The notes under the pieces were generated by a model. The model ran no database searches, was not told the origin of the DNA, and saw only the letters and a program-made list of their open reading frames with translations. Shown one piece after another: positions 9,111 through 46,840 of a stretch of DNA of 64,000 nt (its first letter is position 1; every line of letters begins with the position of its first letter). The stretch lies in assembly GCF_001447785.1 (NCBI RefSeq), contig NW_015172563.1, positions 614,150-678,149 on the forward strand, given 5' to 3'. Source of the DNA: Gekko japonicus. Its lineage: Eukaryota. Position numbers and translations under genes: made by a program.

Positions 9111-9449
<339 letters not shown>

Positions 9450-9689
9450 TAATTGGAGTAAGTCTACATAGCCATACTAGGTTTTAGCTTTTGCAGTGGT
9501 CAGATACAAGAAATACATATGTACTACAGAGAAGTTATATGTTCTTGTTTTGCTGTGTTTTGTTATGGTTTTGATTTATCTCTGAGCCATTTTATTTATT
9601 TGCTCTGGGGAACAGAGAACATATTTTATATCAAGAGTATAAAAGTAAGGGTAAGAACAAGGAAATGGAGTTCAATACTGTAGAGAACA

Positions 9690-10865
9690 TACAAGACTTA
9701 CTGGAGCATACAAGAGAATTTCAGAAGAGAATCATCTTGTGATTCATAGACTACAGCAAAGCGTTTGACCGTGTAGATCATGAAAAGCTACGGTTGATTT
9801 TAAAAGAAATGGGTGTACCATGGTATCTTATTATTTTGATGCACAACCTGTACTCCAAACAAGAGGTTACTGTTAGGACAGTATATGGAGAAACAGAATG
9901 CTTTCCAATTGGCAAAGGTGTCAGACAAGGATGTATTTTATCTCCCTATCTCTTCTAACTGTAAGGAGAACATATCATAAGGAAAACTGGATTAGATTTA
10001 GATGAAGATGTAGTGAAAACTGATGAAGGAACATCAACGATTTGAGATATGCAGATGACACCCCACGTTACTGGCAGAAAATAGTGACTACTGCTGAAGG
10101 TTGAAGCAGACAGTGCCAAAGCAGGATTACAGCAGAACTCAAGAAGACAAAAGTAATGACTACTGGGGAATTACACAACTTTAAGGTCTATGGGGTCATG
10201 AAGAGTTGGACTCGACTGTGCCACTGAACAACAACAAAACAAGGTTGATGATGAAGAAATTGAAATTGACTTTCTATTCCTTGGCTCCATCACCAACCAA
10301 AAGGGAGACTGCAACTAAGAAATCAGAAGGAGATTGAGACTGGAAAAGGCAGCCACAAAGGAGCTAGAAAAGATCCTTAAGTTTAAGGATGTGATGCTGG
10401 CAACCAAGATCAAATTAATTAATGCCATAATATTCCCTATTATTGTGTATGGGTGTGAAAGTTGGACAATAAAGAAAGCTGGCAGAAAGAAAGTTGATTC
10501 CTTTGAAATATGGTGTTGGAGAAGAGTTTTACAGATACTGTGGACTGCCAAAAGGACAAATCGGTGGATTCTAGATCAAACCATCCCTGAACTCCCCCTA
10601 GAAGCTAAAATGATCCAATTGAGGCTATCGTACTTATGGTCACATTATCAGAAGACAAGAGTACCTGGAAAAGACAATAATGCTAGGAAGAGTTGAAGGT
10701 AACAGGAAAAGAGGAGGACCTGACATGAGATGAATGGAGTCAATCAAGGAAAACACAGCACTCAGTTTGCAAGACCTGAGCAAGGCTGTTAGGACTTTTT
10801 GGAGGACATTAATTCTTAGGGTCATCATGAGTTGGAAGCGACTTGATAGCACATAACACACATAC
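9690..10865 (+). mobile_element. RTE/BovB-type LINE, 3' part of RT, degraded
   Basis: FIDYSKAFD.VDH, GVRQGCILSP, LRYADD and YGCESWTIKKA...FEIWCWRR motifs, ending in a CA-rich tail. Confidence 0.88.
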
Positions 10866-13800
10866 ACATGAGCCAAATCTTGAGCAACTGGAGTTCCTTG
10901 AGTCTGAGGTGTGTTTCTTGGCCCATCCCAACTGCCGACTTAGAGACAAAAGAGGAAAGGAAGAGAACCCCTACTGCAATATAACTTGCTAAAATGCCAC
11001 TTGAGGAGGTAGAGTAAAGGTTGTGGTCCCGATCTACTACACCTCTTTCGTTTTTCAGTGACCCCTCAGAGAAGCTCATTGGTTTCTATGTACAATGTAG
11101 AGATACATCCTAGAGTATCCATTTTGATGGCCTTTTAAGAGCCAAACTTGAAATTAAATTTTTCCATGAGTCAGGTATGGGTTCCCCCAACACAAAGCAC
11201 ACCGGGGGCCCAATGACTTCATTTGTAGGGTACACTGCATGTGGAGGCCTCCCCCCCAACAAATAATGCCGTCTGGCTGTTTCAGGTTAGAAAAACAGTG
11301 GGAGGGGGAAGCCCCTGCTATGCCACAGTACAGATTGGAAAGGGGTGCTTTGGGTGCTTGGTTTCCAGCTGCTGCCATCTGACTGTGACAGTATGACACT
11401 TGTACCTTGGGGACCCTGACTGGGCTTGTGGGAAAATGTGAAGTCTTATTTCTGCACAGAATGAATATATGTGTGCCAAAACCAGTCAATAGAATTTCAC
11501 AGAAATATGTTTATTTGCATGTGCATGATGAGCTTTTATACCTTTCCTTCTAAGCCTCATAGAATAAACATGGGCATTTTCTTTTATTGGAGTTGATACA
11601 TGCAACAGCTTTGCCTAATGTGCTTTCAAATGCTTGCACAGATTAAAGCCCATCTGTCAATATTTGTTTATTTAAAATGTTTCTGTGCCACCTTTCCACC
11701 ATGTAAAGGGTACCAAAGCCTTGAATGCCATGAAAACAATTCTTTAAAAATGAAGTTTTGATGAACCATAGATGTAAGATCTATTTCATATGCACCTGAA
11801 AATAATTGTTCCGTTTTCCCTGCCATTAATTACAAAATGTAAATAGAAATTTTATGTAAGGGCCTAGTATGGAGAACTGCTTATGGCTAGAGCATAGGTT
11901 TCTGTAAACCTGGATCCCCCAGCCCGGATTTGCGAGAAATCTTTATTCCTGAATAGAGAAAAACACTTTGAGACAAAAAACCTCTAAAATTGTAGAAGCG
12001 CCTTCCGTATGTATGCAGATATTTTTGTGGGGTGGGGGTGGATAATGACATTCAGGTGGCATTTTGGGTTGGTGAAGGAAGCCAAGGTAGCTGTAGTCAG
12101 AAGGGAGGAGGCCTGGGATTCAGGGAGAGGAGAAAATAGGGGATGGAAAGATAATGGGCAGTGCAGGTGGGAAGGAGAGCTACCAAGGGTTTATCATCTA
12201 TATACTAGTAGCCACATGTGGCCCCCACCTGTGGATAGCTAAATCCATGGATTGGGGGCCACACGAAAGCTAAACAAATTTTTCAGCAAACTTCGAGTTT
12301 TGTCAGGTTTGCAGAAAAATCTAAAAATTAAAAAAAATATATAGGGAGGTTTAAATCCCCTGAAAACACAGAGAATACACTTACCTCAGGTGGGCAGCAG
12401 CAGGACAGATGGGTTCTTATTCTGTTTACCTTGTTTGTTGTCAAAACTCTTTTGACAAAACCAATAAAAACATTATTTTTTAAAAAGTTTCCAATTTGAT
12501 ACTTTTAATAATAATATTATTCCCTACTGTCCTCCCCTTTTTTGCAGCTATGAAGCTGTCTTTCTGCCCATTTCTTTCCAGACCCAGCCTGTAGCCAGAA
12601 AATGTTTATTGGAGGGGCAAATGAGAACAGTGGGGGTCAGCCCATCATAATGTATTTACTTTATTATTTATATATTCATGCTTTATTAGTTATTTACCAG
12701 TTTTCTTCTTGAGACTCAAGGTGGATTACATGGCATAGACTATTGTAATCAAATAGCATATGAGATCTAATAAACAATGCAATGGGACTAGGCTTACAAA
12801 AATTACAAAAATGCAAAAAAAAAAAGTTATGCTATGTCCAGTAATGCAGAAAATGAAATTACAAAAAATGAAAACAATGCTGTAAAAGTGTGATAGAACA
12901 TACAACAAATCAATAATATATAGCATACACTGTGGCATAGACTACAGTCCTGTTTTCTATAAGCTTTTTAAAAATGCCCTCCCAAGCAACTCCATTACAT
13001 AGTTTGCAGAATTAAAGAAGTGTGAGAGTCTTCTTCCAAGACAGGTCCAAAAGAGTCACATACAGCTCTCAACTCAAAACAGTTCAACGCATCATCAGCG
13101 ACTTACAACCTCTACTGCATAATGACAGCTCCCTTTCACATACTTGAAAAAATGAAATATGTAGCTTTCTGGTTCTCTTCTACTAGCCTAGCTGAAAAAA
13201 ATCATGAGCACAGGAAAGCTGTAACAGTATAGGTAACTAAGGGATCACAAGCTTCTAGGTGTGTAAGAGAGAGGGTTGCCAGCTGTGGGTTGAGAAATAC
13301 CTGGAGATTTTTGAGGTGGAGCTTGAGGGCGGGGTTTGGGGAGGGACCTCAGCAGGGGTACAATGCCATAGAGTCTGCTTTCCAACACAGCTATTTTCTC
13401 TGGGGAAACTGATCTTTATGTTCTGACCAAGGTCCATAAAGCATCACCATAAATACTAATTACACTTAAATTAATACCCAAAGCCTCATAATCCTATGGG
13501 AATCTATGGCAAGACTCTCATTCAAGTTACCATTTGGCAGTCAGTGTGAAGAATTTAATCTTTGTGCGGTCTGGCTAGCAGCTCTTGCTATGATCATCAC
13601 TTTATAACTCTAAAATCATTCAGTGCAGTCACTATTTTAAATTCCATACTACAAAGTCTCAAACTCAGTGTAAACTAATAAAAATGCAGTTTCCATAGTG
13701 TCTGATGCTGCAGCTGGTGTAACCTATTATACAGACTCAGAAAGGCAATGGCAAACCACCTCTGCTTCTCACTTGCCTTGCAAGCCCTTAGCGGGGTACC

Positions 13801-14398
13801 TGTCCCCAGAAGTTGTCTGTGACTCCTCTCTCTCTCTTTCTCTCTCTCTGAGCACTCAGAGGCAGCCGGATGGGGTGGGGGCAAGGAGGAAAGGCTGGCT
13901 CGTCGGTCTCCCCTCAGGGAGGGGTGCCCTTTACCTGCTCGCCAGAGCCCCCGCACAAATGAGTCCCATGTCATCCTCGCCTTGGCTGAGGGGCGCGCCT
14001 GGCCATGCGCTCTACCTCTTGGGGATGGGCGGGAGGGCGTGAGGCACCTGGATTGGCTGCCGGGTCAGACGGCTGTGATGTTCCTGCTGCCACCACTTGC
14101 CGAGGAGGGCTGCCGGTCCCCGCAGTCAAAGCCAGAGCCACCACTGGAGGAAGGGGGAGGGGAAGAGCAGGGCTTTTGGTGAGGGAGGGGCGGGGTGGGC
14201 TCGGACGCCAGCCAGAACACTGTTTCAGGGCTTTCTGGCCCAAAAATTGTTCTGAGTATATCTTAATTGTCAACATGACCAGCTGTCTGGATACTTCAAT
14301 CTGGAAACTGGACCCAATGGCAGAAAAAGCAGCTCTTTCGAGGTTAACCTCCAAATAATAAAACAGCACCTATAGCTTTAAGAAAAAGGGGTCCTCAG

Positions 14399-14604
14399 CA
14401 GTGTTCCCTCTAAGCTGAGTTAGTGTGAGCTAGCTCACAGTTTTATAGCCTCCGGCTCACACATTTTTGTCTTAGCTCGGGAAGGATGGCTCCAGAGCAA
14501 ACTAATTTATGCAGCAGCCAAATTGCTTGCTCACAACTTTAATGCCAGTAGCTCACAAAGTAGAATTTTTGCTCACAAGACTCCAAAGCTTAGAGGGAAC
14601 AAGG
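14399..14604. mobile_element. ~206-bp hAT MITE (TIR CAGTGTTCCCTCTAAGCT)
   Basis: Terminal inverted repeats and a perfect 8-bp TSD gtcctcag. Same family at 29084 and 37381. Confidence 0.9.
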
Positions 14605-16904
14605 GTCCTCAGTGGCAGCCACAACAGTGTTGTCAGCCTTCAAGGGTTGCTTTCTGTTGGTAACAAGCAGGGTGGGAGAAGGCAGGTCCCTTTCATAGGG
14701 CCAGACCAAGCAGCAAGAACTGAGTGATTTGTTAATTGTTGTGGCTACTGTATGATGATGCCACACAACTTACCTGGGCCCAACAGCCTTAGCCAAGCCC
14801 AGCAGTGGCCATCACAAATTTCACATGAGTGAATTGCTACTGCACTACTTAGCCAGACTTTTCCCAGGGAGAGGCTGCTGCAGGGAGGGAAGGAGGGAAA
14901 ATTGAGATCCAGTGTTGTGTAGTGATTAGAGAGTTAGAATAGAATCTAGGAGACCCAGTTTCATCCATCCAGCCATCAACATCCATCCATTCATTCCATT
15001 TCAAATCCCTACTCTGCCATGGATGCCTGCTGGGTGACTTTGGGCCAGTCACTCTCTGGCAGCCTAACCTACCTCACATGGTTGTTGTGAGGATAAAATG
15101 GAGGAGAAGAGAATGATGTAAGCCTCTTTGGGGGCCATTGGGAAGGAAAGGAGGTTAAATGAAGTAAATAATTACTAAAGCTGAATACTGGGGTTTGGGT
15201 AGATTAAGGAAAAATTGGTTGATAAGTGGGAAGAAGAAAGCAGGAGAAGGAGGAGAAAAAGAGAAAATCGTATAGGGAAGGAGGTACAGGGTAAAATAAA
15301 GTGACTCCTTTGAAGTCCTTACCTATCTTGTATAAAATGCTCAACCATTAATTTAATTTGTGTCCACCATTCCTGTGTTATATAAACCGCTCAAACACAA
15401 GCTTTGGAGGCTTTGGAGGCCATGGCTGGATGGTTACAGCAGAGCCGGTTGAAACGTAATCCTGTTTAGCCTCGACCAGAGCCAGGGCATTTTTTGCCCT
15501 GGCCCCAGCCTGGTGGAACATGCTCCCACCTAAAATCAGGGCCCTGTGGGATTTGTTATCTTTCCACAGAGCCAGCAAAATGGAGCTTTTCCACCAGGCC
15601 TTTGGCTGAGGCGGTGGGCATCCAATAAAATCTTGGTCTCCCCTGCTGAAGATGAACCTACCACCTCATGTGGCCCAGGTTAAGAAGAAGTTTGATGAAC
15701 CAGTGACGCCAGCTGGAAACCTCTGCATAAGGATGAATAGTGCACTCAGTTTTAATTTATGTTGTTTTACATTGTCTTAATTGTCTACATTTATATCTTT
15801 GACATTTTGATATGTTTTGATATTATGCTGTGATCCTCCCTTGCGGGGAGGGCAGAATATAAATTTGAGTAATAAGGAAATATATATTAAAAATAAACAA
15901 ATTATTAAATTAAATATGTGTTTTAAATTGCAGTTGTCCAGAATATTAATATTTGAAATGTCTCCATAAATGCTTTTAGCTTTGTTTTTCAAAATTTCCC
16001 AACAGTGCTTAGAAAACAGTCTTGACTTGTCTCCTGTATAATAATTTGCCCTTTTATGTTGCATAGCCTTTGTTCTGAAGCAAAATAAGTACACATAAGG
16101 CATCTAAAATTTTATAATTATATTTATTACGTTTTCAGATTATACCAACATTAATTTAGTTGAAAAAACTGTAGAGAAAGTTTATGAAGAACAGAATAAC
16201 AAAAATGAGTAGAAATGGAACAACAAAGTATAACAACTCAGAAAGCCTCCTCATTTGAATAATGTTATTACATTGTTTTAATTTTGAATTAGATTGTTTT
16301 AATTATTATATTCATGTTTTGCTATTGATTTGATTTTAGGTATCCCTCGTATTCTTCCCTTTCAAAGAGTTTCACCAGCTCTCTTCTGCTGTTCCTATAG
16401 AACTTTCCCATTGCCTGGGTTTCCTTAGGATACAAGTCTAGCTGTACTGTTTCTTTCCTGGCTTGATATGTGGAAAACATCAAGATCTCAGTTAGAATAC
16501 AAATACCATCAGGCATTGTTTTCTTACTGTTCTCCCCCTTTCCTCCCAAAAGAGACATCTAAGAGCATAGCGGTGCAGTCCTGAGTCAAGTTATTTTGCT
16601 TAGGACAACAGTGCAAGATTCTTCTGTTCCTCCTTGAGCTAGTTCAGAACCCTGGCTTTTCCCTCCCAGAAATGCAAACATCTAATGGTAGAACCAAGGG
16701 AAATTAACAAACTGAATGATATAAAGGAAGGAAGGGTCATGTCCCATGGAAATACTCCAGTTATGTGATAAAAATATCTCATTATAAACAGATATGTAGC
16801 AACAGTAACAGAAAAGGAACCAAGTTTTTTATACTCCTTAAATATTTGTGCTTTAAACATACACATAGTGAATATCAGATCAGAAAAACATGGAGTCTTA
16901 TGTT

Positions 16905-16910
16905 TTTATT
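16905..16910 (-). terminator. Candidate poly(A) signal for the MSH5 transcript
   Basis: Minus-strand AATAAA about 330 nt after the MSH5 stop, followed by a GT-rich stretch (ATGTGTATGTTT near 16866-16855). Confidence 0.45.
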
Positions 16911-17242
16911 TGGGATGTGGTTTCTTTCTATGAATTGTTTGACATTTTATAACAGATGTGCAGGTGGCTCATCAGGGCTATAGTAAATTCCCTGGTTTGG
17001 CAACATGCTAGGTAGTGAAATAACAGGGAGAAGTGGGATGTCAAACACCTGAGAGGCCACAATATAAGGCTAGTGGACTGTATTCAACTTGGTGGATCAC
17101 AAGTTGCATAAGTCCGATTGACATCTGTAGAAGAATTCACTTGAGAGCAGAGCAGTGTTTCTTTCTAATGTGATTACTAGCGTAACACAAACTTCTTTCT
17201 TTCTGTGTGGCAATTCAATACATTCATTATCTTCTTAATAGG

Positions 17243-19690
17243 TTAAAGAATGGAAGATGCAGATGTCAGCACCTCTTGATTCATAAACTCCTTTAAATCC
17301 AGTTGGGGGTCATCAAGATCTAGGGAAAGGAATTTATCCACTAGAGATTTGCAACTTTCCAACTGTTTCTCTTTAGAAGAATGGTCGGTACGTTTGATAG
17401 GCTTTCCATTGCGGAGCAGCTCTGATACTTCTACTCCTCGGGCAATCACTTTAGGAGGCATGCCAGCCAAAGCTGCAATATTGGCTGCATGGCTGACAGT
17501 GGAGACACCTTCTTTGATCTGATAAAAAAACACAAGCTCATCTCCATCTTGGTGGGTGTCCATGGTCAGGTATTGCACTTGGGAAGCGTCTGGCAGAAGC
17601 CTCAGCTGTATCAAGCTGTGGAAATTAGTGGCAACAAAAATGTGTGGACACTGGGTTGCTTGTCTGATCCAATACCTTAGCACCGCAGCCAGAAGAGAGA
17701 GGCCATCCACTGTGTTTGTACCTTTGCCAAATTCATCTATGAGCACCAAGGACCTTTCAGTGGCATTGTTCACGGCCTTGGCTATTTGGTTAAGATCAAT
17801 CATGAAAGTGGACAGTCCAAGAGATACTGACTCTCTACTGTGGATCCTTGTGTAGATTCCGTCCACTGTCCCTATCTCAGCCTCAGCAGCAGGGACATAG
17901 CTGCCAATCAGAGCCATAAATGTGATGAGGCCTACCTGTTTTAAATATATACTCTTTCCAGATGAATTGGGCCCAGTAAGGATCTTGATCCGGCCAGAGG
18001 TTTCAGTGCTGTCCACTGAATTGGGAACAAAAGTTTTTGCACACAGCTCCATAAGTGGATGCCTTCCATCTTTAATACGGATGATCTGAGAGTGAGAAAA
18101 ATGAGGTCGGGTATATCCATTCTCTCGAGCCATCACTGTCAAGGACAGGAGCACATCCAGCTGTGCTATGCATTCAATCACATCGTTAAGAACAGCTGAC
18201 TTTTCCAGTATCTTAGTCTGTAGCTGGTACATGAGTAGTGTTTCCTGATCTCTTATTTCACAATGCAGGTCACCAAGCATGCTGTCCAGTTCTTTGGTCC
18301 TGGCGCTTCTGTAGTGCAACTTTTCCTCTGATAAGAACATGAAATCTAGACCCTCAATCTCAAAGTCAGTCTTATCCACCATTGTGGGCAGCTGTGGAAT
18401 GGAGAGCAAGAATCCTAACAAGGGGATATAAATAACACTACAAGATGGAATCTGATTATCTAGGTCCTGCAGTTCTTTTCGGGCCACGTCAGTGAGGAAG
18501 TCTGAGAGCCCCATTAGCTTCCGTTTCTTTTCATCAATGATGGGATCTACATTTGGTCTGACAGTGAAGTGATTTTCTGAGATGCTAGCTTCAAAATCCA
18601 CCACTTTGCTGATTAGACTGGCAATGTAGTGCAAATCGTCAGTGAAGACCTGAGAAATAGTCTGGAAAAGTTCAATGATGCTGGGCAAGGAGCGACATGT
18701 ATCTCTGAGGCATATGGCGCTATAAACAGTTTTGTACAGTGCCTGCCAGTCACTTACCTTTGTATTTGAAAGAGCCATTCTTCTAAGAATCATAGGTACA
18801 TTTTTAATATTTTTGAGGCACTCTTGTAAGGTCAGAACTGTTTCATGATTCCGAGCTAACAAGAAGAACTGGATTACATCAAGACGTTTGTTCAGCTCTG
18901 TCACATTGCGGGTGGGCCTCATCAGCCAGAGTCTCATCAGCTTTTCTCCCCACTTGCACCTACAGTGGTTCAGAATTCCATATAAACTGAGTCCTTCTTT
19001 TTTCCCACTAGCATGCTTATAGACAGAAGGATGAACCTCACTTTTAAATACCTGCAGCACGCTGTAAGTGTCTTGATCCACATGTATAGTATCTGTCAAT
19101 ACAAACTTTTTAAATGCCAGAACGGGAACTCCAACACTGCTATCTTCCAGTTCAACTCCAACCCTTCTCCTTTCAATAAACTTTAACAGTCCTCCTAATG
19201 CTCGTATGATCAGTGGGCTCTCAAAAGGTATAATGGAGGACAAATAGACGATTTTCTCAGCTGCCGTCATGTGAGAGGGAATGAAGGGGAATTGCTTAGA
19301 CAGAATCCTTTGCTTGCTTACTTCTAAACAAAAATCCGTATTTGGATAGTAGACAACTTCTGTTTTTCCTCCTTCCTGCTTGTCTCCTACCATGGCACTT
19401 ATATTGTTTAAGAATTTGGCTAAGGTATAATCTTGCTTAGCACTACTTAATATGCATTGGGGAAGTACTTCATCAATTACTTTTTGAAGGAGTTTAAGGT
19501 CTTCACTGTCTGGTGTGTCAGCCATGAAGTAGATTGAGCAGTCTCCAGTGTCATAATAAGTTATTCCCAGGTCTCCAGCAAACCACAGTACACACATGTA
19601 GATCTCAGACTGCCCTTGTTCCTCTTCATATTCAGAGAGAGGCATTGGTGGAGGCTGGCAGTGGGTGGCAACCGTAGCTCTGGCACTCAT
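17243..19690 (-). CDS. MSH5: MutS homolog 5, intact single-exon ORF (probable retrogene) nested antisense in an AKAP7 intron
   Basis: Uninterrupted 815-aa ORF. MSH5-type N-terminus ([43 protein letters not shown]) with no mismatch-binding domain I. Walker A GPNSSGKS, signature STFMIDL, Walker [12 protein letters not shown], and ATNFH. AAAATG start context. Confidence 0.96.
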
Positions 19691-22600
19691 TTTTTTGACA
19701 GCTCTGTGTTGTATGGCTGTGTGAACAAGAATATTTTGTTAGTACTTCATCCTGCGATACCTCTTTCCTTACACATAATTGCCCTCTCCTGGGTTAGTCA
19801 TTTTCTCTCTCCACATCAATGTCATTTCATTAGGTATCCATTCATTCTATAGATTATAGTAGAATTGTATTACTATATGGATTCTCCTCTCACCTTCTCT
19901 ATATTGCTGCACAGTTTCCCAATCCTTTGAGGGGGGAAATATGTAGACAGCCTGTTTCTAACAGGAACTGAGTATATCTGGTTATTAGTAACAAAGGCAA
20001 AACTTCAATTGGAAGCAAATCTACTTCAACTAGAACTTGTCTTGTTTTAAGACAGCTGAGATTTTTACATCCATTGAACTTTTTATGCCACTTGAATTCC
20101 TTCTCATACTGATAGCTTATAGTTTTGCTAATATCACAAAAACACATCTTAAATAAAAATTATAAAAGTAACAATTACACAATTAACTCTTTTCAACATT
20201 CTGTGCTTTCTTTGTATAGTTCATGTGTGAGAGGTAAGATTGTATAAAAAAGGGAATGGTGTGTATACATATTTGTATAAAGAGCAATTATATCTATTCA
20301 CTGATATATCTCCCAGTGGTGGGTGATAAGCACTGATATCTCAGAATATTCCCTCTCCCATTCTTCCTTCTTTGCTACCTACACTGTGGAAAGCAGCTGC
20401 CCTAGCCAATAAAAATAATTTTGAACAACTTTAGAAAAGGGAATGCTTCCAGAGAATCAGAAGGGCAATTGTACTGCATAATTCAAGACGGAAACTAATA
20501 TTCACCAAAATTAAATGGGTCTTCTCTGAAGATGACACTTGTCAAGGAATCCCAAAACAAACTCCGTGGGTCCCCAGGGGAGTTGTGCACAAGTAACCAG
20601 ACTGTTGTTTAATTTTTAAAAGGATTTATAAAGTTTATTTCAATTTCTATCAATATGAAAATTTATTCTGTAGCCAATACATTACTCTAAAATCATGCAG
20701 CAGGAAAACAAGAAAACTAGCTTAACTACCTAACACTGTTTAGAATTTGCTATAAAAATTGATATATTTTTCATAACAAGGGGATAGGATCAGATTTCTG
20801 TATTGCTAATATCACCAGGTATATTATCCCTAAAGGTAATTAAAGCAGCTTTTAAAAAACAGCTTCAGAAATTAAATTAAATCTGTGGAATATTGAGTTG
20901 GACATTAATATGAAACCATATGCTAGAAATTTTAGGTAATGTTTATTTAAAATATTTATGAACCACCTTTACTCAAGTTGTGGGCCCAAGTTGGTGTAGA
21001 AGACACACTTCAGCATGGAGATTATTAAAAACACAAACCATAAAGCACATTGTCCCACTATGATAAAACACATCAATCCAAATCAAACAGCCACAGCATG
21101 GTAATAAAATTAACAGCAAGCCCTTAACAGCTTTACATGCCTTCCTAAATATGGGTAAGGATGAAGAACTTCTCACATCTACTGAAAACCTGTCTTAGAG
21201 CGTTGGAGCCAGCACTGATGAAGCCCTGGGACAGGCTACCACAGACTGAACCTCCCTGTGGAAGGGAACAAAAAAAAAGTTGGTGAGAAGAACATAGTTG
21301 AACACAAACTACTGTTACACCTATGATGTGCTCTGTGTGAAAAGCTAGTCATCTATGAGAATCATAGACCAGTGCTAGAGGAAAAAAACTTAATCCTACT
21401 TTTTAAACTCCCAAAATTATGTTTCTGAATCATTCCTTACTGAGAATTGGATACTTTTATTAAACTTATTTTACTGCCCTGTTCTCTAGTACTGAATAGT
21501 TAACATAATTAAACAGAATATACTTGGCTATAGGTTGCAGTAAGGTAGGGCCAAGGGCTAAAATGAAAACTTCGCTGTTGCAGTATATTAACTGTTGTGC
21601 AGGGTTTCTTTAGAATTGTCACCATTCTAGAATGTATATATATTATTTTAAATTTATTTAGTGCTTTTCTAGTTGTGTCCTTAGACTTATCCAAATATTG
21701 GACTGAATCTTATGACTTCCTTATACTAAGTAAGAAAGCTTCCTCCGACAGAGGAAGGCTTATCACTTAGCAAAAAGCAAATGTAGGATCCAAATCCACG
21801 ATTATTACCAATCACATTAGAAATACAGATAAAAGATACATTGTCAGTTGCAGAAGAAGATCTTCCCATAACTTAGCCTTCCTACAATAGCCCTGGTGAC
21901 ACTCTCCCCTCCGAAGCCATGAGGCCAGGGATTAGGGAACCTGGATGGATGGCTTTATGGCACAAGGGGGTAGTTATTATATGGAATCAAGACATCTGTT
22001 CACTTGTCTGCCAGCTCTGCCTCTGCTGGTAGAAGAGACTTGACTGGTGGTGGTGGTGGGGGAGTTGATTTAATCCAACTCCTCATCCTCACAGTGCTGC
22101 ATGTCTTTTTATTCTCAATGGTCCTCTGAATCAGAGCAGTGCTTCTTGGGAGATCTGAAGGTGGGGAATGTCAACTTCTGTAAGCACCTTTTAAGAAAAG
22201 TTTTTATTGACAAGTTGTCACTCACTTTAACTGCAGACTTAATGATCAAGTACCTATAATGAAAGCAGCAAAAGGCGCAACCTAAATCCAAGGTCAGTGT
22301 TTTGCATACTTAGAGGACCCCAGGTGTGCAGAAAACTATTGCTTTGTCCAGGGGTCATTTCGTAGAAAAAGAGGTGCAGGAGCTCATTAGCATAACTCAT
22401 TAGCATAACTTATTTTCATATGCCACACCCTCTGACATCACCGGAAGTGTGTCAGAAGGCAACATCCACCGCTCAAACTCCACCCAAAAACTCTCCAGGT
22501 ATTTCCCAACTCAGAGCTGGTGAGCCAGCTTTACACTTTGACTAAAGACACTTTAGGTTTCCTTTGCTCTTGCAGGGAAGCTACCCTACAAGAAGCATAA

Positions 22601-23164
22601 AAATACAGATCAAGTTAGTACGCTTTTTCTTTTTCTGCAATAAATCAGGAAAACAAAATATTATTCTGGCAACAACATGCCTGGGAGAGATATTAACTGA
22701 AAGGGCAATGTTTATAGCAGTCTTGAGGAGCATGCGTTCTATTGCACCTTCACACACATTAAGACCAGACAAGGTATAATCCCAAACAGGCATCACACCA
22801 GCAGCCATGTACACAATGCTGCCCATGTTTGCCATCTACCATAAACACATCAAGGCAAGCTATAGCAGGGATAGCCCTACAGTAAGATCAGGTGAGACAT
22901 GATCTGCCTTAATTGGGTGTTATTAAAGATTGGGGAGGGAAAGCAACAGATTTGTTCCAGGGGGCCCAACACACTGGGAAATTCTCTTACTCAAAACTCA
23001 AACAGAGCAAGTGGGAGACATGCAAGACATCAACTTCCAAAGAGTCATGATACCGGACAGCTTCCCAACAGCTCACACCTCATGCCATTTTTTTGGTCTG
23101 AATTTCTTAACACAGCTTGGGTCAGCCCTGAACTAAAATCCAAATACTGACACTAAATACCAGT

Positions 23165-23431
23165 NNNNNNNNNNNNNNNNNNNNNNNNNNNNNNNNNNNN
23201 NNNNNNNNNNNNNNNNNNNNNNNNNNNNNNNNNNNNNNNNNNNNNNNNNNNNNNNNNNNNNNNNNNNNNNNNNNNNNNNNNNNNNNNNNNNNNNNNNNNN
23301 NNNNNNNNNNNNNNNNNNNNNNNNNNNNNNNNNNNNNNNNNNNNNNNNNNNNNNNNNNNNNNNNNNNNNNNNNNNNNNNNNNNNNNNNNNNNNNNNNNNN
23401 NNNNNNNNNNNNNNNNNNNNNNNNNNNNNNN
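23165..23431. other. Assembly gap (other gaps at 26427-26476 and 56672-56817)
   Basis: Runs of N. Confidence 1.
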
Positions 23432-24493
23432 CCCCCCCCCCAATCTTGTTCATGCAGATAGTGGAGAGAGAGAATTAAGTTGTGCAAAGAGATGTATGCC
23501 AGCCTCCAGGTGGGACCTAGGGATCCCCTGTAATTACACCTTATTTCCAGAGTACAGACTACAGAAATCTGTTCCCCTGGGGTGAAATGGCTGGTTTGGA
23601 GGGTGGACTCTATGGCATTGTACCCCACTGTGGTCCCAGTCCTCCCCAGGCTCCACCCCCAAATCTGCAGGAGTTTCCCAGCCTGGATCTGACAACCGTG
23701 CCCTCCCATTCTCTGCCAGTGGCCAGGTCCCCCAATTAGCCACAGATCTTTGCTTATTGACTTACGTTGCATACACTGGAGCAAGGATTCCTATATCTCC
23801 TTGGATCCCCAAACATTGAAGTCTAAATGGAGGGCCTTTTGGAATAACATCTTTCCAAAATGATATGGCAGGTATGGGGTTGGGGTGGGGGTGTCGAGGC
23901 CAGAAAGATGCCTGCCTGCTCTTTTATGTCTCTCTCTCCACTTCCTTCCTTCCATTTCCAAACCACACCGGGATCCTCGCCGCTCACATTGCAAGCCACA
24001 CCTCAACGTCTCATGGGAATCCAGCAGAGCCAAAGAGACCTGCGGAAAGCAAAGAACCAGGCTGGCTTCCCTTCCCTTCCAGTGGGGAACGGGGCGAGAG
24101 AGGGAGGGCAACACAGAAAAGTCCTTCCCTCGCATGCCTCACCTCCTGCTCAACTCTCCATGGACTTTTCTAGGAATTGGCGAGCCAGCCTCACCATCGG
24201 TTTTAACCCTTTCGAAGGGGGAGAGTTAGTGGCCTCCAATCAAGAAGGGGTTTTCTTATGGACACACTGAAAGACCAGACAGATTTCTGGAGGAGGTTGC
24301 TTGCAACAAAATGGTTCGGCAGGTGTCTTGGGGGCATATACACAATGGCTGCTGCAGAAGGCAGAGCCACGTACACACAGAGGAAATCCAAGTGCAGGAG
24401 AGAAGAGGGGTAATTTAAAAGATACACAGGGAAAGAAGAGTGAAAGAGAATACAATCAACACTGTGACAGCTGCTGCTTTTCAGGCTAGCCCC

Positions 24494-24892
24494 GAATTCT
24501 ACATGGCCACTATTGAAAAGGTAGCAGCCAGCCAAACACCTTGGGAAAACTCTCTGGGCGACATGGATGCACCCAGAGGAGAACGGCGCGCAAAAGTGAG
24601 GACTGCCCTCCCCAGCCCAGTTCCCTTACTTTGAGGAGATTGTGTGCTGCCCTGTAGCCGGCCTCTGGTCCACCCCCAACACCAGGAGGCAGCCGAATTC
24701 TAGATGGACACTGTCAGAAAGGTAGCAGCTGGCCAAATGCCTTGGGAAAACTCTCTGGGTGACACGAATGCGCCCAGGGGAGAATGGCATGCAAAAATGA
24801 GGACTACCCCTCGCCCGGTTCCCTTACTTTGAGGAGGTTGTGTGCTGCCCTGTAGCCGGCCTCTGGCCCGCCCCCAGCGCCAGGAGGCAGCC
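24494..24892. repeat. Diverged tandem duplication (~200 bp x2) of the Klotho exon-1 3' end, donor and intron start
   Basis: Units 24494-24694 and 24695-24892 both start GAATTC and end GGAGGCAGCC. Each carries the minus-strand AHNLLK|GTAAGG junction (donor G at 24629 and 24827). Confidence 0.9.
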
Positions 24893-25260
24893 GGCTGGTG
24901 GCGTAGCCATGCCAGGTCACAAGATAGGGGCTGTTGACGGTGAGCCATTAGCGCACGTGGCAGCCGAAGCTCCTGAAGCAGAGCTCGGCATAGTCCGAGA
25001 AGCACTCGACCAGCGCCAGGCTCTCCCAGCCACTGTGGGTGTCCTACAGGGGCTGGGGCAGGTCTCAGTGGCATAGAATGACCACAGGCTCAATGCCGCG
25101 GGCCTTGAGGCTCTCCCAGAGGCTCCCGTAGAACAGAGGGCAGCGGGGTTGATGGGTGCCGTGCCGTGGGGGAGGAGGCATGCCCAGGCCAGCAAGAAGC
25201 AGTAGTGGGAGACGCCCAGGAGCCGGAGCCCGTCACACTCGCACGGTAGCCATCGAGGAA
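24828..25260 (-). pseudogene. KL: Disabled copy of alpha-Klotho exon 1 (KL1 glycosyl hydrolase family 1 domain), splice donor retained
   Basis: Manual translation across frames gives GLRLLGVSHYCFLLAWACLLPHGTAPINPAAL /frameshift near 25135/ [99 protein letters not shown]|gtaagg. This parallels KL (LGVTHYRFSISWARVLP...PVVTLYHWDLPQ.LQD..GGW...DYAELCFRHFG..V.YW.T.DNPY.VAWHGYATGRLAPG...AHNLL). Stops at 25065-67, 25044-46 and 24948-50. DYAELCF and GYATxRL favour KL over KLB. Confidence 0.88.
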
Positions 25261-27331
25261 TGCTACACGTGCTGCTTCGCACTCCTGTTGGGGGTGGGGC
25301 TTGCTGCCTACGCCGCTGCCAGAGCACCGCTCCTGCATGCTCCAGGTCGAAGTGACCCCTGCTTTGTCCATTAAAAGTAGAGTTTTTTTTCCAGAAATGG
25401 CCCAATGAGGGCTGAGCACGCTTATTTCCATTAAGAACAATTCAGAGTCAGTTAAAGGGGAAAAGAAATCAATGAATATGATGACGGAATACAGCTGTTC
25501 AAATTCCTAATAACTTACAGTATTCTAAAAGGGGAGATTTGGGTTACAGGGGAATTACTCCACTTGTGACATCATTTGTCCCTGTTTTATTTTTCTGGCA
25601 CTGAATTTCATGATATATGTGGGCCATGGGGTTGCGAAGAGTCAGACTTGACTGTAAACAACAACAACAAAGTAGGACAGCAAAACACAGCTCCCAAAAG
25701 ACAAGATAAGGGTTTCTATATATTCAGGGAACTTTCTGGGAATGTAGAAAAGTATAATTTTGTAAATTAAAGGAGAGACCACCTTCACCCCACACCCAAA
25801 ACAGCATGATGAGGATTGCCCATTAACTGGCCTGCTCAAGCTCATAATATTTTTAATACTCTGGAGTGGCAAATTTTAGTTAGGGGAAATTTCACAAAAA
25901 CGTCTCTCTCCTCCCCACATCCCCACCACTGACTCCTTGCCATTTTCCAACTGGTACTATATTTTATAGAATTATTCAATACATTCTAAATTTTCTTCAG
26001 ATCTTTCCCATCCAAGTTAATTGCCCCTCAGTTTTCAGGTCTCTGAACACTTCTGAAACTTGAAAAATTGGTTTTACCATGAAGGTTTTTGGTTCTGCCT
26101 GTCACAGGGCTGCTAACCCCAAGTGTTCTAAAACAACTCAGTTTTATCTGTATTTTACTCTGATTTCTGGGCCTCTAGGGAACACTGCTGTCCCATGCTT
26201 ACCTGCTTTAAGCACAAAGTTTTTTAAAAGAAGTAAAGATTTAGCTCTTCTACTTGGCAGTGCAGGAGAGCTCCTGTTTTGTTGATTCCTTCTTTCTCCT
26301 CAAATCTTGTTTCACAATTCTTGACTGATCTTGCCTTCCCTGCCATTACAGATGAGGGGATGTTATTTAAACCCTCACACAGACACATCATTTTTCATTC
26401 CCCCCGCCCACTCACCCACTGTTTCCNNNNNNNNNNNNNNNNNNNNNNNNNNNNNNNNNNNNNNNNNNNNNNNNNNATTGTATGCTGTAGTCTTTTTTCT
26501 TTTAGTTTCCACATCTCCAGGAGATCACACTGAGCTGGGCCTGAGGTACCAGGTTCCCCTTTTTCCTAGGCAGCTCCTCAGCGTTCATCCTGAGAAAGAG
26601 CTTTATTAGCAGGCCACACTAGACGTAGATATAGAGGCTGACAGATCTAAGGAATTGTTTAAGAATGTCTTATAAGTACTTTGGTTTAATCGCCAGTTTA
26701 TGAATGTAATGGATATGGATTGTTGGTCATAAATTAAAAACCTTTTCTATGTTTCTAGGTCAATTAATTTTCTTAGCTAATTTATATAGAATAACGCAGG
26801 GATATAAAAACACCCTTTAAACAGAGCAAAGGACCACTTCACTGATGTGAAGGAGGTTCCCATATGTTCTTCCACAAAACATCCCAGCTCCTCTCCCAAG
26901 CAAACAAAAATTGCCTGAGTAAGTGCTTCCTAGGCAAAAGCAGAACCTCCTCATGAGGTCAGTTGCTGGGTGGTACCATTTCAGATAACTGGGGGGGGGG
27001 ATTGAATATTGAATGCTCCCCCACATAAAATGCTCCCTGTGATGCAAAACCAGCTTGTCAAAGGGTAGAATCAAGGTTTTGACTCAAGAGACTTCATACA
27101 TATATCCTGAAAGCAGTTGCATAATCCTTTCAAATTCAAAAAGGGTTGTGATGCTTGCGATCCTCCTCTGTGGATTAGATGTGTCACATGTCTTAATTTT
27201 TTTCTTAATGGCTCACTGTGTGATCTGGTACTTTGCTGGTATTATTTATATTTTGTCCTCTGTACATTATGTGTGAACACACAGCGAGTGTATACGGGGG
27301 AAAACAGAACACACATCGTTTCAATGACTAA

Positions 27332-27345
27332 CCACTAGATGGCAG
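27332..27345 (+). promoter_or_regulatory. Candidate CTCF core motif
   Basis: CCACTAGATGGCAG matches the CTCF core CCASYAGRKGGCRS, in non-repeat sequence. Confidence 0.45.
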
Positions 27346-27364
27346 TACTATTTCAGTAATTAAA

Positions 27365-27526
27365 TAAAATGTTGAACAATGATGAAATCTGGTCTTTAAA
27401 GTTTTATGACCAAATTCTGTGATTACTGCTTATTCCTTATCCTAGTAAAATGTTGAACAATGATGAAATCTGGTCTTAAAAGTTTTATGACCAAATTCTG
27501 TGATCACTGCTTATTCCTTACCCTAG
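27365..27526. repeat. ~81-bp tandem duplication
   Basis: Two near-identical units TAAAATGTTGAACAATGATG...CCTAG at 27365-27445 and 27446-27526. Confidence 0.9.
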
Positions 27527-28307
27527 TATCCATTAAATTTCCTCAAAGTAAATAAATGTATGATTTTTAAAAACAGTGTGATTATCTGTTACTATTGTTT
27601 GACATATACCATAATGCGACTTTAAAGGAACTGATAATAGCCTCTCTCTGTTGTTACCTTTTATATAAATACTCAAATAAAATTTATCTTCATGTATACC
27701 TAAAATTTGAAGGAAAATACATGTTAAATTGTCAGTCTGCAAAGTATAAAGAATAATTATTGAGCCAGAGTATTATTTAGATTTTGAAGGCTGGCTTGAT
27801 GTCTTATTCTTTCATTTGCTTTTATCATTCAGAAATAGATATTGGCACTACTTTTTGCATATACTATAACAACCATAATATCTTGTTAATAGACACAGTT
27901 AGAAACATTTTATCATAGTAATGTTGAATAGTTCTGCTTGTATGATTTGCTGCTTATATTACACCAGTGAAATTGCACCAATGCTGGCAGTATATGAATG
28001 TGATATACTGGTAGGCATCCATGAAAGCAATCCACAATTTTTAACAGGTTTCCATTCCCGGATCTGCTGTACTATTATCAACAGATACCACAGAACAAAG
28101 GGTTATGACAATGCTGTTTGAGAGCTTACACCACTGCTACAAAAATGGCGTTAGCCAAACAATCAAGCAGTTTTATTTTAAAATGTCACTTTGTTGAAAT
28201 GTTCAGTAGGAACATAGGAAAGAAATATTAAAATCAATACATTTTGATGCACAGTGCAAGTGCTGTACTCCTAAGATTATTACTACTACGGTATTAATAA
28301 TAATTAA

Positions 28308-28511
<204 letters not shown>

Positions 28512-31470: not shown

Positions 31471-33245
31471 TATATTCTTTATCACTCTTATTTATTAATT
31501 TAATTTATTTAAAATATTTATAGCTCTCATTTTCTATTATAAATATCCAAGGCTGCTCAGAACATAGTAATTAAAAATACACACGGGTAAAAACCAGACT
31601 TGTATAAAGAAGTTAAAGTATTCAACAACAGCGGGTAGCAAAACACAACATTTGAAATGATAGAAACAGAGCAGAGTATAAACAGCAGTCATATTGAATC
31701 AGTTCTTTAGGAGCTCATGTGATTAGAGACTTGAAATTCGCTGTCTGCATCAGTGGCTTAAAAAATTGAGCCCAAACAAATTACTGTGGCATTTCTAATT
31801 GTATTCATTTGGAATGTTGATATTTTGTTTAGGATTTTAAACATCTGTTTCCAGTTGTTTCAGTCCTAGTATAAGTGCTGGAAATTTCATATAAATATAA
31901 TACAAAATTACAGGTAAGTGGATGTGGAAAAGTGACAGGCTTTTTTTGTAGCAGAGAAAAAAATGCTCCCTGCACACTTGCGAAAGTACAGTTGCCACTA
32001 AGCAGAGAACCTGAAAACTTCCATTGGTTAACATTTTATATGCAAGAATGGCAACAATACCAATTTGTATTTTAGGGAGAATGCCTATGGAATGAAGTTG
32101 AAATTTTCTTTTTTAAATTCATAAATTTGAAAACACAGTCTTTGAAAACATAGTCAATGAAACATTACTAGCAATAGCTTCTAGCTGCATGTGTATTAAC
32201 AGCACAATCCTAAACAGCTTTACAGAAAAGAGTGTAACTCTGTTTAGGATTGCACTGTAAGAATTCCATCTCAAGAAAAAGATTAACAGTTGAACTGAAG
32301 TCTGTCATCCGGATTACAATCTTTGGGAAACAGCCTCCAAAAGCCGATAATCTGTAGGGGTTGGAAGGCTGTACAGAAACAGTAATTCCATTTTTTCAGC
32401 AGTTTACCTAAAACATTCCAAATATTAAGCAACATTTGACTATTAGACCCAGAATGCGAGGAGTGCCAATATGAAAATGGGAACTAGCTAGTTAGAATTC
32501 TTGATGGCATCTAGGAAATTTGTGATGCAGGCATCATTCTCATGAATCAGAATGAGTCTTACGCTTAGATGCTTTTCCTAACTTTTTCATTTTGTAATAA
32601 AACTCTGTTTTAAAGTGAGAAGCAATTTGTATAATGGTAAGTTATTCTATGGTTAATTATCATACTAATAGTAAAAAAATTGAACAATTCTTTATGTACT
32701 GTATAATTTGTCAGATGACCCCATTTAAGGTACCAGAACTGAAGGATAACACTATGTTTGATCAGTTTTATTTACGTGCAAAATTCTGCTGCTTAATCAA
32801 ACCATTAAGAGCAGTTAGCTTGAGCACAAGCATGGACCTTTGTAGGGACTAAGAGCACCATCCTATGCATGTTTACTTGGTGATAAGTCTCATTGAATTA
32901 CTTGGCCAAGTATGTATACATAAGCTTGCTGCCTGTGATTTCTGTTTCATTGTGACACAAAATATATCCCTGAGCAGCTGAAAAAATATTCAAGGCCCGA
33001 ACAGGAAACAGTTGCTTTTGCTGTTCTGCCTGCCCTGTTTGTTTGTTCACTTATTTTATTTTACTTTATTAATACCCCATCTTTCTCCTTAATGGGAACC
33101 TAAAGCAGCTTACATTATTCTGTTCTTCCATTTTAATCTTCACAACAACCATGTGGTGGGGTAGGTTAGGTTGACAGTGTGACTCGCCCAAGGTCACCCA
33201 GCAAGCTTCCATGGGACAAGTGGGGATTCAGACCTGGCTCTTCCA

Positions 33246-33952
33246 CAGGGCCAGCCCCAGCTTATTTTGCACCCTAGGTGAGGATCCCTTCTGGCACCCC
33301 CCCGTGTGCCCACCAATTTTCTCTTCTGCCCCCCCCCCGTGCTGCTGCTCCTCCTCTTGAGAAGTTAGCTGGCCAAAGAGGCGGCGGCGGTCACCTGGTC
33401 AGAGCCAGCGGGGGGACTTTTTGGCGGGGGTGGCGGGTGCAGTTTGCCGCCCCTCATCAGGGTGCCCGGAGAAGAGGCTGACCAGTGTGGCTCTCAAAAG
33501 CCGTCGCTCCCCTGGCCCTGCTGTTCCTCCTCCTCCTCCTCCTCCTGAAAAGTTAGCTGGCCAAAGAGGCAGCGGCGGTTACCCAGTCAGAGCCAGCGAG
33601 GGGGCTTTTTGAGTGGGGGGGCAGGTGCAGTTTGGTGCCCCTCGTCAGGGTGCCCGGAGAAGAGCTGACCGGTGGGGCTCTCAAAAGCCGTTGCTCCCCC
33701 GGCCCTGCTGCTGCTGCTCCTGCTGCAGCTGCCAGTCCCCGGCCGCAAGGAGGAGGAGGAGAAGCATTCACGTTCCGCTGGGAAGGGGGCAGGCAGGGAG
33801 AAGTTAGCCGGCCAAAGAGGCGGTGGATGGCAATGGTGGCGGCAGTCACCTGGTCGCGGAAATGCAATGGCGGGGGGGTGCAGTTTGGCGCCCCTAAGGA
33901 CCGGCACGCTCTAGGCGAATGCTTAGTTTGCCTAGTGAGCGAGCCGGCCCTG
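33246..33952. mobile_element. GC-rich hAT-type non-autonomous element with internal tandem repeats, nested in a SINE
   Basis: Termini CAGGGCC...GGCCCTG and TSD ctcttcca/ctgttcca. GAAGTTAGCYGGCCAAAGAGGC-like motif recurs three times (near 33360, 33548, 33800). It interrupts a SINE spanning about 33060-33995. Confidence 0.8.
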
Positions 33953-36033
33953 CTGTTCCAGATACTAGTCCAGCACGCTAACCAGTACACCACACTAGCT
34001 TTGAAATCTCTTGAAAGGAATGGAACAGCATCTCTTTATGTTGTTTTATGTTCACTGAGTGGAGAGTCAGAGTGGTGGTTCAGCACATCAGCTGTTAAAA
34101 ACAGTCCAGGAAAAGTTTTCGTAATGAAAGTATATAATTGCCAGGCTCCACCAACCTGATTCCTTATACCGCTTTTAATATGAAAGATAATTATGGACAT
34201 TAGTAGCTATTTGTCATGAATTATTTGATATGATACAAGTTGGTTTTTAAAAAATATAAGGACCAAACACATTAGATATAATACTTTAAACAAACTTGGG
34301 AGCCAAAGGATGTTTTCTGCTGTCATGTAAAGTCAGTTTAATCCAGTTGATACCACTCGGAAAAATATGTTTAAATTCAGGTGATGTAGTAGTAATGATA
34401 TGTGAATTGCACTGAAAGTGTAGCACAAAGTTTTTGTGGATATGAGCTGTTATTCCAACATACACTTTTAATGCAGTCGCTACAGTGATGTTCCGTTTGA
34501 CACAGGTCTGGCAAATTCACTTTCCTGTACAGCCTGTCAGTTGCAGTCTACTGATAACTAATCACAGGCACCTGCATATCTGTAGGAACCCCACATATTT
34601 GTTTGGTTTCTGAACTATATATTGGTTTTATGCAGTATTACTTTTTGCCACATGTAGCAACAGATGAAGTGTGTTTCTGCAGTTCAATATGTTCAATTGG
34701 TTTGGAATTCCAGTGTAAAGATCTGCATTGTAATGCTTTCCTTGTACACAACCCTGCCACCTAACCAGTCACAGTTTTTTACTCATGAAACAATCCATAG
34801 TGGGTTGGATTCAACCTACATTTCCACTGGTTAAAAAGGGAAAACCACCCTTCTGATTGCCCAAAATGGCTGTGCTGGGAATCGTGGGACTGTATGAACA
34901 AAAGCCATATGGGAGTGACTGGAGTAAGGAGGAAAATAGGGTGAGATTTAGCAAAAAAGCTGGCTGGATCTAACCCAGTGTTGGGCAATGACTTTGAAAT
35001 ATTAATAAAATGGTTGGAAAAAGTGATCTATTTAAGACATAGGTTTGCTTTGATAGCTGCTTAGAACACATAGTATTAATTACTGAAGGAAATTAATTCA
35101 AATAGACAAACACTAAAAAGGGGAATTGTTTAGTCTATTTCACACTTCTCAAAAAAAAACACAGTGCTGAAGTGCAAGAGTACATAAACATCTGCTTTTT
35201 ACAAAGTTTGAGTCCAGTGGCACCTTTAAGACCAACAAAGTTTAATTCTGGGTATAAGCTTCTGTGTGCATTCATACTTCTTCAGGTACATTGAAATGGA
35301 TTTTGCCAACCGCTACATATAGATACAGAGAAGGTGGGGGGTGGAGTTAGTTGCCAGAAACAGCTAATTGGAGTCAAGATGCATAAGTAACTGAGCACTA
35401 AGTACAGCTAAGATTGGATTAAAGCAGTTGGTAAAGCCTGTGAGTAGCAGCAAATTAGCATACAGATAATAAAAGAGTTAACAAACAGTTGTGAGAACTG
35501 AGTGAGTTAGCATGTGTAGTGTGATAAGAACCCGATACCTCTTTTAAGCGCTGGGGGTTCCATTGTCCTGAGTGTTGTAATAACTTACAGTTCAACAATA
35601 TCCTGTTCTAGTCTGTTTCTGAAATTCCTTTGCAATAAAACAACTCCTTTGAGGTCCCCCATTGAGTGTTCTGGGAGGCTGAAATATTCTCCTACAGGTT
35701 TCTCAATTTTGTGATTCTTGATGTCCATTTATCCTTTGGCATGGGGTTTCACCTGTTTGCCCTATGTAGAGAACCAAAAGGCATTGTTGGCATTTAATGG
35801 CATATACAATGTTAGAAAATGAGCAGGTGAATAAGCCTGAGATGGTGTAGTTGATATTGTTCAGTCTGGTGACCGTGTTGTCTGAGTGTATGTGGCAGCA
35901 AAGTTGGCATCTGGGTTTACTGCAAGCTCTGGTACCAGTGCCCATGTTCAAATTAGATGTTGTATTATTGTGGGTGAGGAGTTGTTTAAGATTGGGGGGG
36001 ATGTCTGTGGGCAGGAAAAGTTTTGTCCCCCCG

Positions 36034-41495: not shown

Positions 41496-41894
41496 CAGGG
41501 CTCTTTTTGTAGAAAAAGCCCAGCAGGAACTCATTAGCACAATAGGCCACACCCAACAGCAGAAACTCATTAGCATATTAGGCCACACACACCCTGACAG
41601 CACAGCTCATTAGCACATTAGGCCGCACCCCCATGTTACCAGAAGTGTGGTCATCCAGCCACACCCACCTTTTGCTTCTTATTCTGTTTACCTTGTTTGT
41701 TGTCAAAACCCAGGGCTTCTTTTGTAGCAGGAACTCCTTTGCATGTTAGGCCACACACCCCTAATGTAGCCAATCCTAATGAGTTTCTGCTGTTGGGTGT
41801 GGCCTATTATGTTAATGAGTTCCTGCTGGGCATGGCCAACTCAGGAGCCAGCTGGAACTCCGTTCCTGTGCGTTCCTGCCCAAAAATAGCCCTG
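41496..41894. mobile_element. hAT-type MITE with CTCATTAGCA repeats
   Basis: CAGGGCT...AGCCCTG termini and perfect TSD ctcttatg. Confidence 0.85.
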
Positions 41895-46584: not shown

Positions 46585-46840
46585 TTTTAGATAAACATAT
46601 GGAGCAGAGGTCCATCAGTGGCTATTAGCCACAATGTATAGATAGGGGCTCTGGGGCAAGTGATGCTCTGTCTTCTTGGTGATTGGGGGGTCAACAGTGG
46701 GAGGGCTTCTAATGTCCTGGCCCCACTGGTGGACCTCCTAATGGCACCTGGTATTTCTGGCCACTGTGTGACACAGAGTGTTGGAATGGATAGGCCTTTG
46801 GCCTGATCAACATTGGCGTCTCTTATGTTCTTATGTTCTT
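46585..46840 (+). mobile_element. CR1 3' end inserted in the L1 ORF2
   Basis: Same 3' UTR type as 30660-30880, ending (TTATGTTC)n, and it interrupts the L1 RT region. Confidence 0.75.

Follow-up and report, generated by a model that had tools for sequence, protein, structure and literature searches.

An alpha-Klotho exon-1 fragment within an AKAP7 intron of Gekko japonicus as the probable cargo of a multicopy hAT-like transposon family

In the gecko Gekko japonicus, an intron of AKAP7 contains a decayed copy of exon 1 of the alpha-Klotho gene (KL), which is very probably the cargo of a non-autonomous element of 3.0 kb bounded by terminal inverted repeats (TIRs), likely captured in a single microhomology-guided template-switch event, likely spread by cut and paste through a hAT transposase encoded elsewhere, and likely inert. 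The analysed window is a stretch of 64,000 nucleotides (contig NW_015172563.1, positions 614,150 to 678,149). The ends of the element, its target duplications, donors on other contigs, several KL-bearing sites and the decay of the cargo are directly visible in the assembly. An initial annotation of this DNA had recognised the KL fragment and named DNA-level duplication or transposon capture as its origin; the TIRs, the target duplications and the dispersed copies decide for capture. The fragment was taken there as a one-off event, which it is not, as it represents one member of a cargo-carrying family.

On the minus strand of the window, positions 25130-24828 read as 101 codons interrupted by exactly three stops (TGA at 25067-25065, TAG at 25046-25044 and TAA at 24950-24948), and in the PDB this stretch is matched best by Klotho (E 2.6e-44), followed by beta-Klotho (6.5e-37) and GBA3 (4e-21). 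This is the protein comparison with KL and KLB that the initial annotation had proposed, and it bears out the reading as a minus-strand alpha-Klotho exon-1 pseudogene fragment. Against the parent gene on contig C12312 one 1-bp deletion is found near 25134, so that the three stops and at least one frameshift noted before become three stops and one frameshift. The KL homology ends at 25234; the exon part (24828-25234, minus strand, 407 bp) corresponds to the last ~136 of 239 exon-1 codons and the first ~103 codons are absent. The interval 24828-25330 with about 140 codons reported earlier therefore holds as KL up to 25234, while 25236-25330 belongs to a transposon end. At 24828 the exon stops at the AAA|GTAAGG donor that had been described (GT at 24827), followed by the start of KL intron 1 (24693-24827), and in a DNA search of the gecko's own genome the similarity to the parent extends over the donor and ~170 bp of intron 1, in line with the DNA-level origin without retroposition. 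The DNA identity to the parent is 81% over 25234-24695 and 75% over 24695-24477. A 201-bp tandem duplication (24492-24893, two units 86% identical) doubles the donor region and extends to the end of the KL homology, resulting in a second copy of the exon end, donor (GT at 24629) and intron start at 24477-24692 on the minus strand; this duplication is present in the window copy only.

Judged by these sequence comparisons, the fragment is a copy of alpha-Klotho exon 1, closer to KL than to KLB or GBA3 and with an intact parent in the same genome. Its CpG observed/expected ratio is 0.51 compared to 0.88 in the parent, and 36 of the 84 substitutions separating the two are CpG transitions, as would be expected of an unmethylated island copied into methylated DNA. 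A functional KL gene duplicate was rejected as a candidate, given the missing ~103 start-side codons, the frameshift and the three stops. Processed pseudogenes are dead gene copies that may lie in a foreign intron, that have lost their introns and that carry a poly-A tail. The KL fragment resembles them as a dead copy in a foreign intron; a retrocopy reading was nevertheless discarded, as the donor and intron-1 start are kept, no poly-A tail was seen and TIRs bound the copy. No signs of function were detected in the KL fragment of the window, which likely is an inert passenger.

The genome search for the parental KL locus that the initial annotation had suggested returned an intact parent (G000:C12312) and KL pieces on nine non-parent contigs. 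The 717-nt coding exon 1 of the parent ends AAG|GTAAGG at the same junction as the window fragment, and exon 2 (AHAKVWHLY) begins about 13 kb downstream. The C12312 exon scores Klotho over beta-Klotho; a separate locus, C1127, scores beta-Klotho best. The search with the parental exon yielded 13 matches, namely the parent itself, a 263-bp contig (C148543) that is 100% identical to the parental exon and was excluded as an assembly duplicate, and 11 matches on the nine other contigs, the window's contig included. A further 360-bp contig (C116227:1-360) contains part of a derived KL version. No ends of the transposon family were found within 10 kb of parent KL exon 1, and capture by end-bypass is therefore not indicated. 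A 137-bp unit is tandemly repeated just 5' of the parental exon 1 (L022:765-1012), and half of it recurs in intron 1 (1976-2040). Some of the KL copies (lineage B, see below) join intron 1 to the other half of this upstream unit, which prompted a circular-DNA origin to be considered; the idea was dropped because the parental intron also holds half of the unit.

The element that carries the fragment spans 22349-25361 (3,013 bp), possesses short TIRs at both ends (~14 bp, imperfect, with 13-bp subterminal repeats) and is flanked by an identical 7-mer (22342-22348 and 25362-25368), for which the chance of occurring at this spacing is about 3e-5. From the left it is composed of the left end (22349-22500, plus strand), which is common to short family members of 340-730 bp; the family body (22501-23494, enclosing the assembly gap 23165-23431), which is found at 87-95% identity in at least 40 other places, with 40 of 258 candidates scored; a second cargo (23496-24329, minus strand) derived from contig C3394; a ~150-bp fragment of an unrelated high-copy repeat with ~25 bp of filler (24330-24478); the KL piece; and the right end with its TIR (25236-25361, plus strand). 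The own-genome DNA search identified a high-copy repeat in the 125 bp that adjoin the KL piece on its 5' side, and in 7 of 12 loci examined this right-end repeat, with its orientation unchanged, follows a second repeat that matches window 22349-22500; on this sequence arrangement the two repeats are the two ends of one family. Runs X1 and X2 each contain one contig that crosses the right junction of the element without a single difference. Two short elements, whose ends are of this type or a related one, lie elsewhere in the window (41496-41894, 399 bp; 59474-59845, 372 bp), each with an exact 8-bp duplication.

The second cargo is 87% identical to its donor (G000:C3394:~955874-956960) and 92% identical to the corresponding piece of a KL-bearing element on contig C4956. 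The donor locus has a CpG observed/expected ratio of 0.8 in its core and a donor-like site (AAG|GTGAGC) whose window counterpart has decayed at 23987, and downstream on the same strand a SCAN exon lies 7.8 kb and a KRAB exon 16 kb away. This piece thus likely represents the promoter or first exon and the intron start of a SCAN-KRAB zinc-finger gene. Just 3' of the KRAB exon, a 360-codon unbroken frame (L151:8701-9780, plus strand) shows matches to PLA2-inhibitor and uPAR/Ly6 domains. In a plain count, the cargo junctions of the element show microhomologies of 7, 2 and 4 bp at three of four and short filler at the fourth; the 7-bp microhomology, between KL and the right end, only counts as such if CpG decay is allowed for.

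Four of the nine KL-bearing contigs (the window's, C4956, C9063 and C6762) contain complete elements with distinct target duplications, although the left TIR of the C9063 element is damaged. The C4956 element (2,575 bp, L050:730-3304) is colinear with the window element from end to end, has different flanks and its own 7-bp repeat, and is the closest body match to the window that was found (94%). The remaining five lack one or both ends: C15139 and C6708 show the right end only, the left end being absent from their examined stretches, C5659 preserves a 125-bp remnant where the contig ends, and C9067 and C5528, having flanks in common, may represent one event. The copies would fall into two lineages, A (window, C4956, C5659) and B (C9063, C15139, C6762, C6708 and C9067/C5528). 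In a CpG-masked tree the lineage-A copies group with a support of 94, and supports within lineage B are 23-67. Both complete lineage-A elements have 7-bp duplications, or 8-bp duplications if the terminal G is counted as target, and the KL-bearing C9063 and C6762 elements of lineage B have 8-bp duplications. Lineage B carries other extra cargo, including ~950 bp from contig C3412 (93% identity). The KL piece is interrupted by a GC-rich insert of ~490 bp in three copies (C6762:194283-194774, C6708:2220594-2221094 and C116227:1-360); for the insert of C6762 and C6708 no Pfam match was obtained, and the donor search gave family copies or repeats only.

All six copies that cover parent position 724340 have S in place of the R found in the parent and in human Klotho, a shared change that is in favour of KL having been captured only once. 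At the shared site 724379 the derived state is found in the parent and not in the copies; together with the low lineage-B supports of 23-67 this makes two near-simultaneous captures possible. The TAA stop is common to the KL copies of the window and C4956, so that the KL cargo was dead, i.e., non-coding, before the last jump. Non-CpG divergence of the KL copies from the parent amounts to 6-12%, and to 16% for the window tandem duplicate. The pN/pS values of the copies against the parent range from 0.45 to 1.06, are uncorrected, include the parent branch and are not a clean 1.

Among the loci examined, 26 elements possess both ends together with a flanking direct repeat. The duplications are 8 bp long in 24 of them (exact in 17, with one mismatch in 7) and 7 bp long in 2; as the filter demanded a direct repeat, the length split alone is informative, and 2 of the 26 are of a related end type. 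The elements measure 342 to 4,501 bp, and family members share their ends and often the left 0.8-1.3 kb, their right-hand interiors being different and, in the 12 elements profiled, GC-rich near the right end. The short TIRs with subterminal repeats are of a type that we take to be hAT-like. An 8-nt target duplication is given as a hAT signature in the consulted part of a paper on plant Pack-TYPE elements (Gisby and Catoni, 2022, PMC8903248). From its TIRs and the length of its duplications, the family would be classified as hAT-like. Remnants of hAT transposases are abundant in the genome (at least 150 scored matches), and no autonomous element with the family ends as its own termini was found within +/-1.5 kb of 30 hAT dimerisation-domain loci, which were drawn from 150 scored of 1,509 candidates.

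KL is not the only gene start in this family. A Pfam scan of 149 of the 229 stop-free stretches of 12 other family elements gave two matches, an F-box and a GH1 domain. The F-box cargo originates from an intact CpG-island first exon on G000:C16281 (~302450-303000; exon 3 at 286621-286808; minus strand), presumably of an FBXO33-like gene. Five family elements carry this exon 1 (L085:2309-4754; L182-L186), in the same orientation as the KL cargo, and in the four of them that were added to the first the family right TIR is located 71-346 bp upstream. Two of the F-box elements have kept both ends, each with an 8-bp duplication of its own; left ends are absent from the examined stretches of the copies on C3392, C15676 and C2803. 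In four of five copies exon 1 is joined to the middle of exon 3 via a 4-bp microhomology, the fifth being deleted there. As the two exons are 15.7 kb apart in the gene and ~350 nt apart in the mRNA, the join hints at a spliced template; no exon-exon junction is kept in the cargo. KL, the F-box exon and the C3394 piece all point sense-inward from the right end (3/3, not significant). No family ends adjoin the C3412 and C16281 donors. The C3412 donor is not GC-rich (GC 0.40, CpG observed/expected 0.13), which counts against a strict bias for gene starts, and no gene could be assigned to it from six stretches scanned. For the cargos of the elements L078 and L084 the searches gave other family copies or repeats and no single-copy donor.

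The host of the window element is a single AKAP7 intron (9369-28340) between exons at 9255-9368 and 28341-28488 on the plus strand, which match AKAP7 residues 124-158 and 160-207. The KL cargo is antisense to AKAP7, so that its donor does not permit splicing into AKAP7. The same intron contains an intact intronless 815-codon MutS-family ORF (17243-19690, minus strand) with MutS III, IV and V domains, which we take to be MSH5. It is the only full-length match in a strict own-genome protein search and may be a retrogene that replaced its parent. The earlier statement that the intron holds two foreign gene copies made by different mechanisms is upheld, but the MutS copy is not a dead one.

These observations are consistent with a sequence of events that began with a break in a family element, whose repair used the unspliced exon-1/intron-1 region of KL as template, in the form of DNA or possibly of nascent RNA. 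Further template switches would have added the C3394 piece and exchanged ends, giving rise to lineages A and B. A lineage-A element with the KL stop already present would then have inserted in the AKAP7 intron in antisense orientation relative to the host gene, where it presumably gained the 201-bp tandem duplication and lost CpGs. Mobilisation would have occurred in trans.

Several other explanations were weighed against this scenario. It is unlikely that a resident cargo-free family member in the AKAP7 intron had its interior replaced later by gap repair from a KL-carrying copy. Such conversion is described as the usual route of single-copy animal Pack-TIRs in the sections of the animal survey used here (PMC8277862), the family clearly swaps interiors and ends, and the window body is only slightly nearer to C4956 (94%) than to other members (89-93%). 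However, the window and C4956 elements are colinear throughout, C4956 is the nearest body match found, both share the odd 7-bp duplication that is absent from the 24 other elements, and four KL-bearing elements have distinct duplications. The abundance of short family elements, two more of which lie in the window, could speak for KL exon 1 having simply been duplicated at the DNA level (segmentally or during repair), its proximity to transposon ends being accidental. This explanation is highly improbable, as the KL homology stops exactly at the right-end sequence and a direct repeat flanks the outer TIRs, and it is contradicted by the second complete copy on C4956, which shows the same composite with new flanks. 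We give next to no credence to an assembly artefact. Mis-scaffolding of the 3-kb contig between the gaps 23165-23431 and 26427-26476, which the initial annotation had considered, would fit a fragmented assembly in which a 263-bp contig is identical to the parental exon, but the ends and the matching target duplication straddle the 23165 gap, family members are colinear over it (5 of 9 other body-family loci examined, on both sides), the identity of the fragment to the parent is no more than 81%, and contigs of two other runs contain the right junction as well.

The inert state of the cargo has its own alternative, namely that the cargo was co-opted as a promoter or 5' exon of the same-strand MSH5-like gene, or as a regulatory antisense RNA. 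The KL cargo lies 5' of the MutS ORF on the same strand (the element being 2.7 kb away), it offers donor sites at 24827 and 24629, and an acceptor-like pyrimidine tract with AG precedes the ATG (19690) by ~27 nt; immediately 5' of the MutS ORF no CpG island is present, and Pack-TIRs often make chimeric transcripts, as far as the survey is drawn on here (PMC8277862). The CpG loss of the cargo (0.88 to 0.51), which suggests methylation, the decayed C3394-derived donor site and a GC/CpG-rich region at ~33-34 kb as an alternative promoter candidate argue against this role, which is accordingly judged quite improbable. An inert passenger thus remains the preferred reading.

By its sequence features, i.e., host sequence inside TIRs, an unlinked parent, multiple copies, distinct duplications and microhomology at breakpoints, the element has the makeup of a Pack-TIR, and can be described as a multicopy Pack-hAT-like element, a known but rarely documented kind of animal gene capture. 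Capture of gene fragments with subsequent transposition is common in plants. In the portions of the broad animal survey considered here it was rare: 370 animal Pack-TIRs are given, 208 of them hAT; of the 370, 13.4% are exonic and only four families (1.4%) are multicopy, and the lizard genome listed there, for which no more than 77 DNA-TE entries were annotated, has 0 Pack-TIRs (Tan et al., 2021, PMC8277862). Pack-hAT-N8_XT of Xenopus tropicalis, which carries the CAPSL 5' UTR, is likewise a non-autonomous TIR element with a host-derived interior and a distant parent, and multicopy animal Pack-TIRs also show distinct duplications per copy, junction microhomology and GC-rich cargo (4 of 5 of their multicopy cases). 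Compared to the animal Pack-TIRs in these portions of the survey, the KL cargo is larger (~580 bp against a median of 224 bp) and comprises a protein-coding first exon with its donor and intron; moreover, the gecko element holds pieces of two loci and its family carries several gene starts (PMC8277862). Ssk-FB4 of Drosophila melanogaster is likewise a coding host sequence multiplied by transposition after capture, but it is described there as a young gene, nearly complete and translated, whose element has long TIRs, whereas the KL piece is truncated, multiply broken and older (PMC8277862).

Plant Pack-MULE and Pack-hAT elements are similar in their heterogeneous interiors between shared ends and, for hAT, 8-nt duplications, and plant Pack-TYPE elements in combining several loci per element and in being often multicopy, according to the consulted part of Gisby and Catoni (2022, PMC8903248); plant Pack elements also draw on GC-rich parental genes, as stated in an excerpt of a further source (PMC5861414). 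In contrast to plant Pack-TYPE elements, the host here is an animal and the gecko family is known from DNA sequence alone, and mobilisation of DNA between two neighbouring elements is not indicated since the gecko donors lack a flanking pair of family ends. A literature search, with subscription journals and repeat databases outside its range, found nothing on Klotho pseudogene duplication in reptiles, a KL element, a squamate Pack-hAT family or an MSH5 retrogene in AKAP7.

The family-level pattern of capture is the part worth following. The gecko family made at least two multicopy captures of coding exons, with intact donors, junctions and target duplications that are still readable, which opens a direct way to test capture bias, polarity and the nature of the template (DNA or RNA). 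A tentative and rather doubtful idea in this respect is that the hAT-like family behaves like Pack-MULEs with polarity, repeatedly harvesting GC-rich gene starts (KL, F-box exon 1 and likely the SCAN-KRAB promoter exon), setting them sense-inward from the same end and shuffling and multiplying them, with some captures perhaps being RNA-templated. In practical terms, the about nine diverged copies of KL exon 1 can confuse Klotho annotation, PCR and read mapping in Gekko japonicus.

Further features were noted around the host gene. Positions 33001-34200 of the window form a GC/CpG-rich island within AKAP7, 3' of the exon at 28341, that is a candidate internal promoter. A decayed stretch on the minus strand at ~45300-51000, which we take to be a LINE, contains reverse-transcriptase-like and ORF1-like frames and is CpG-rich in its 5' region (observed/expected ratio of 0.95 at 50001-51000). 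Finally, a second multi-exon locus with AKAP7_NLS-domain matches is located at G000:C3942:157244-172877.
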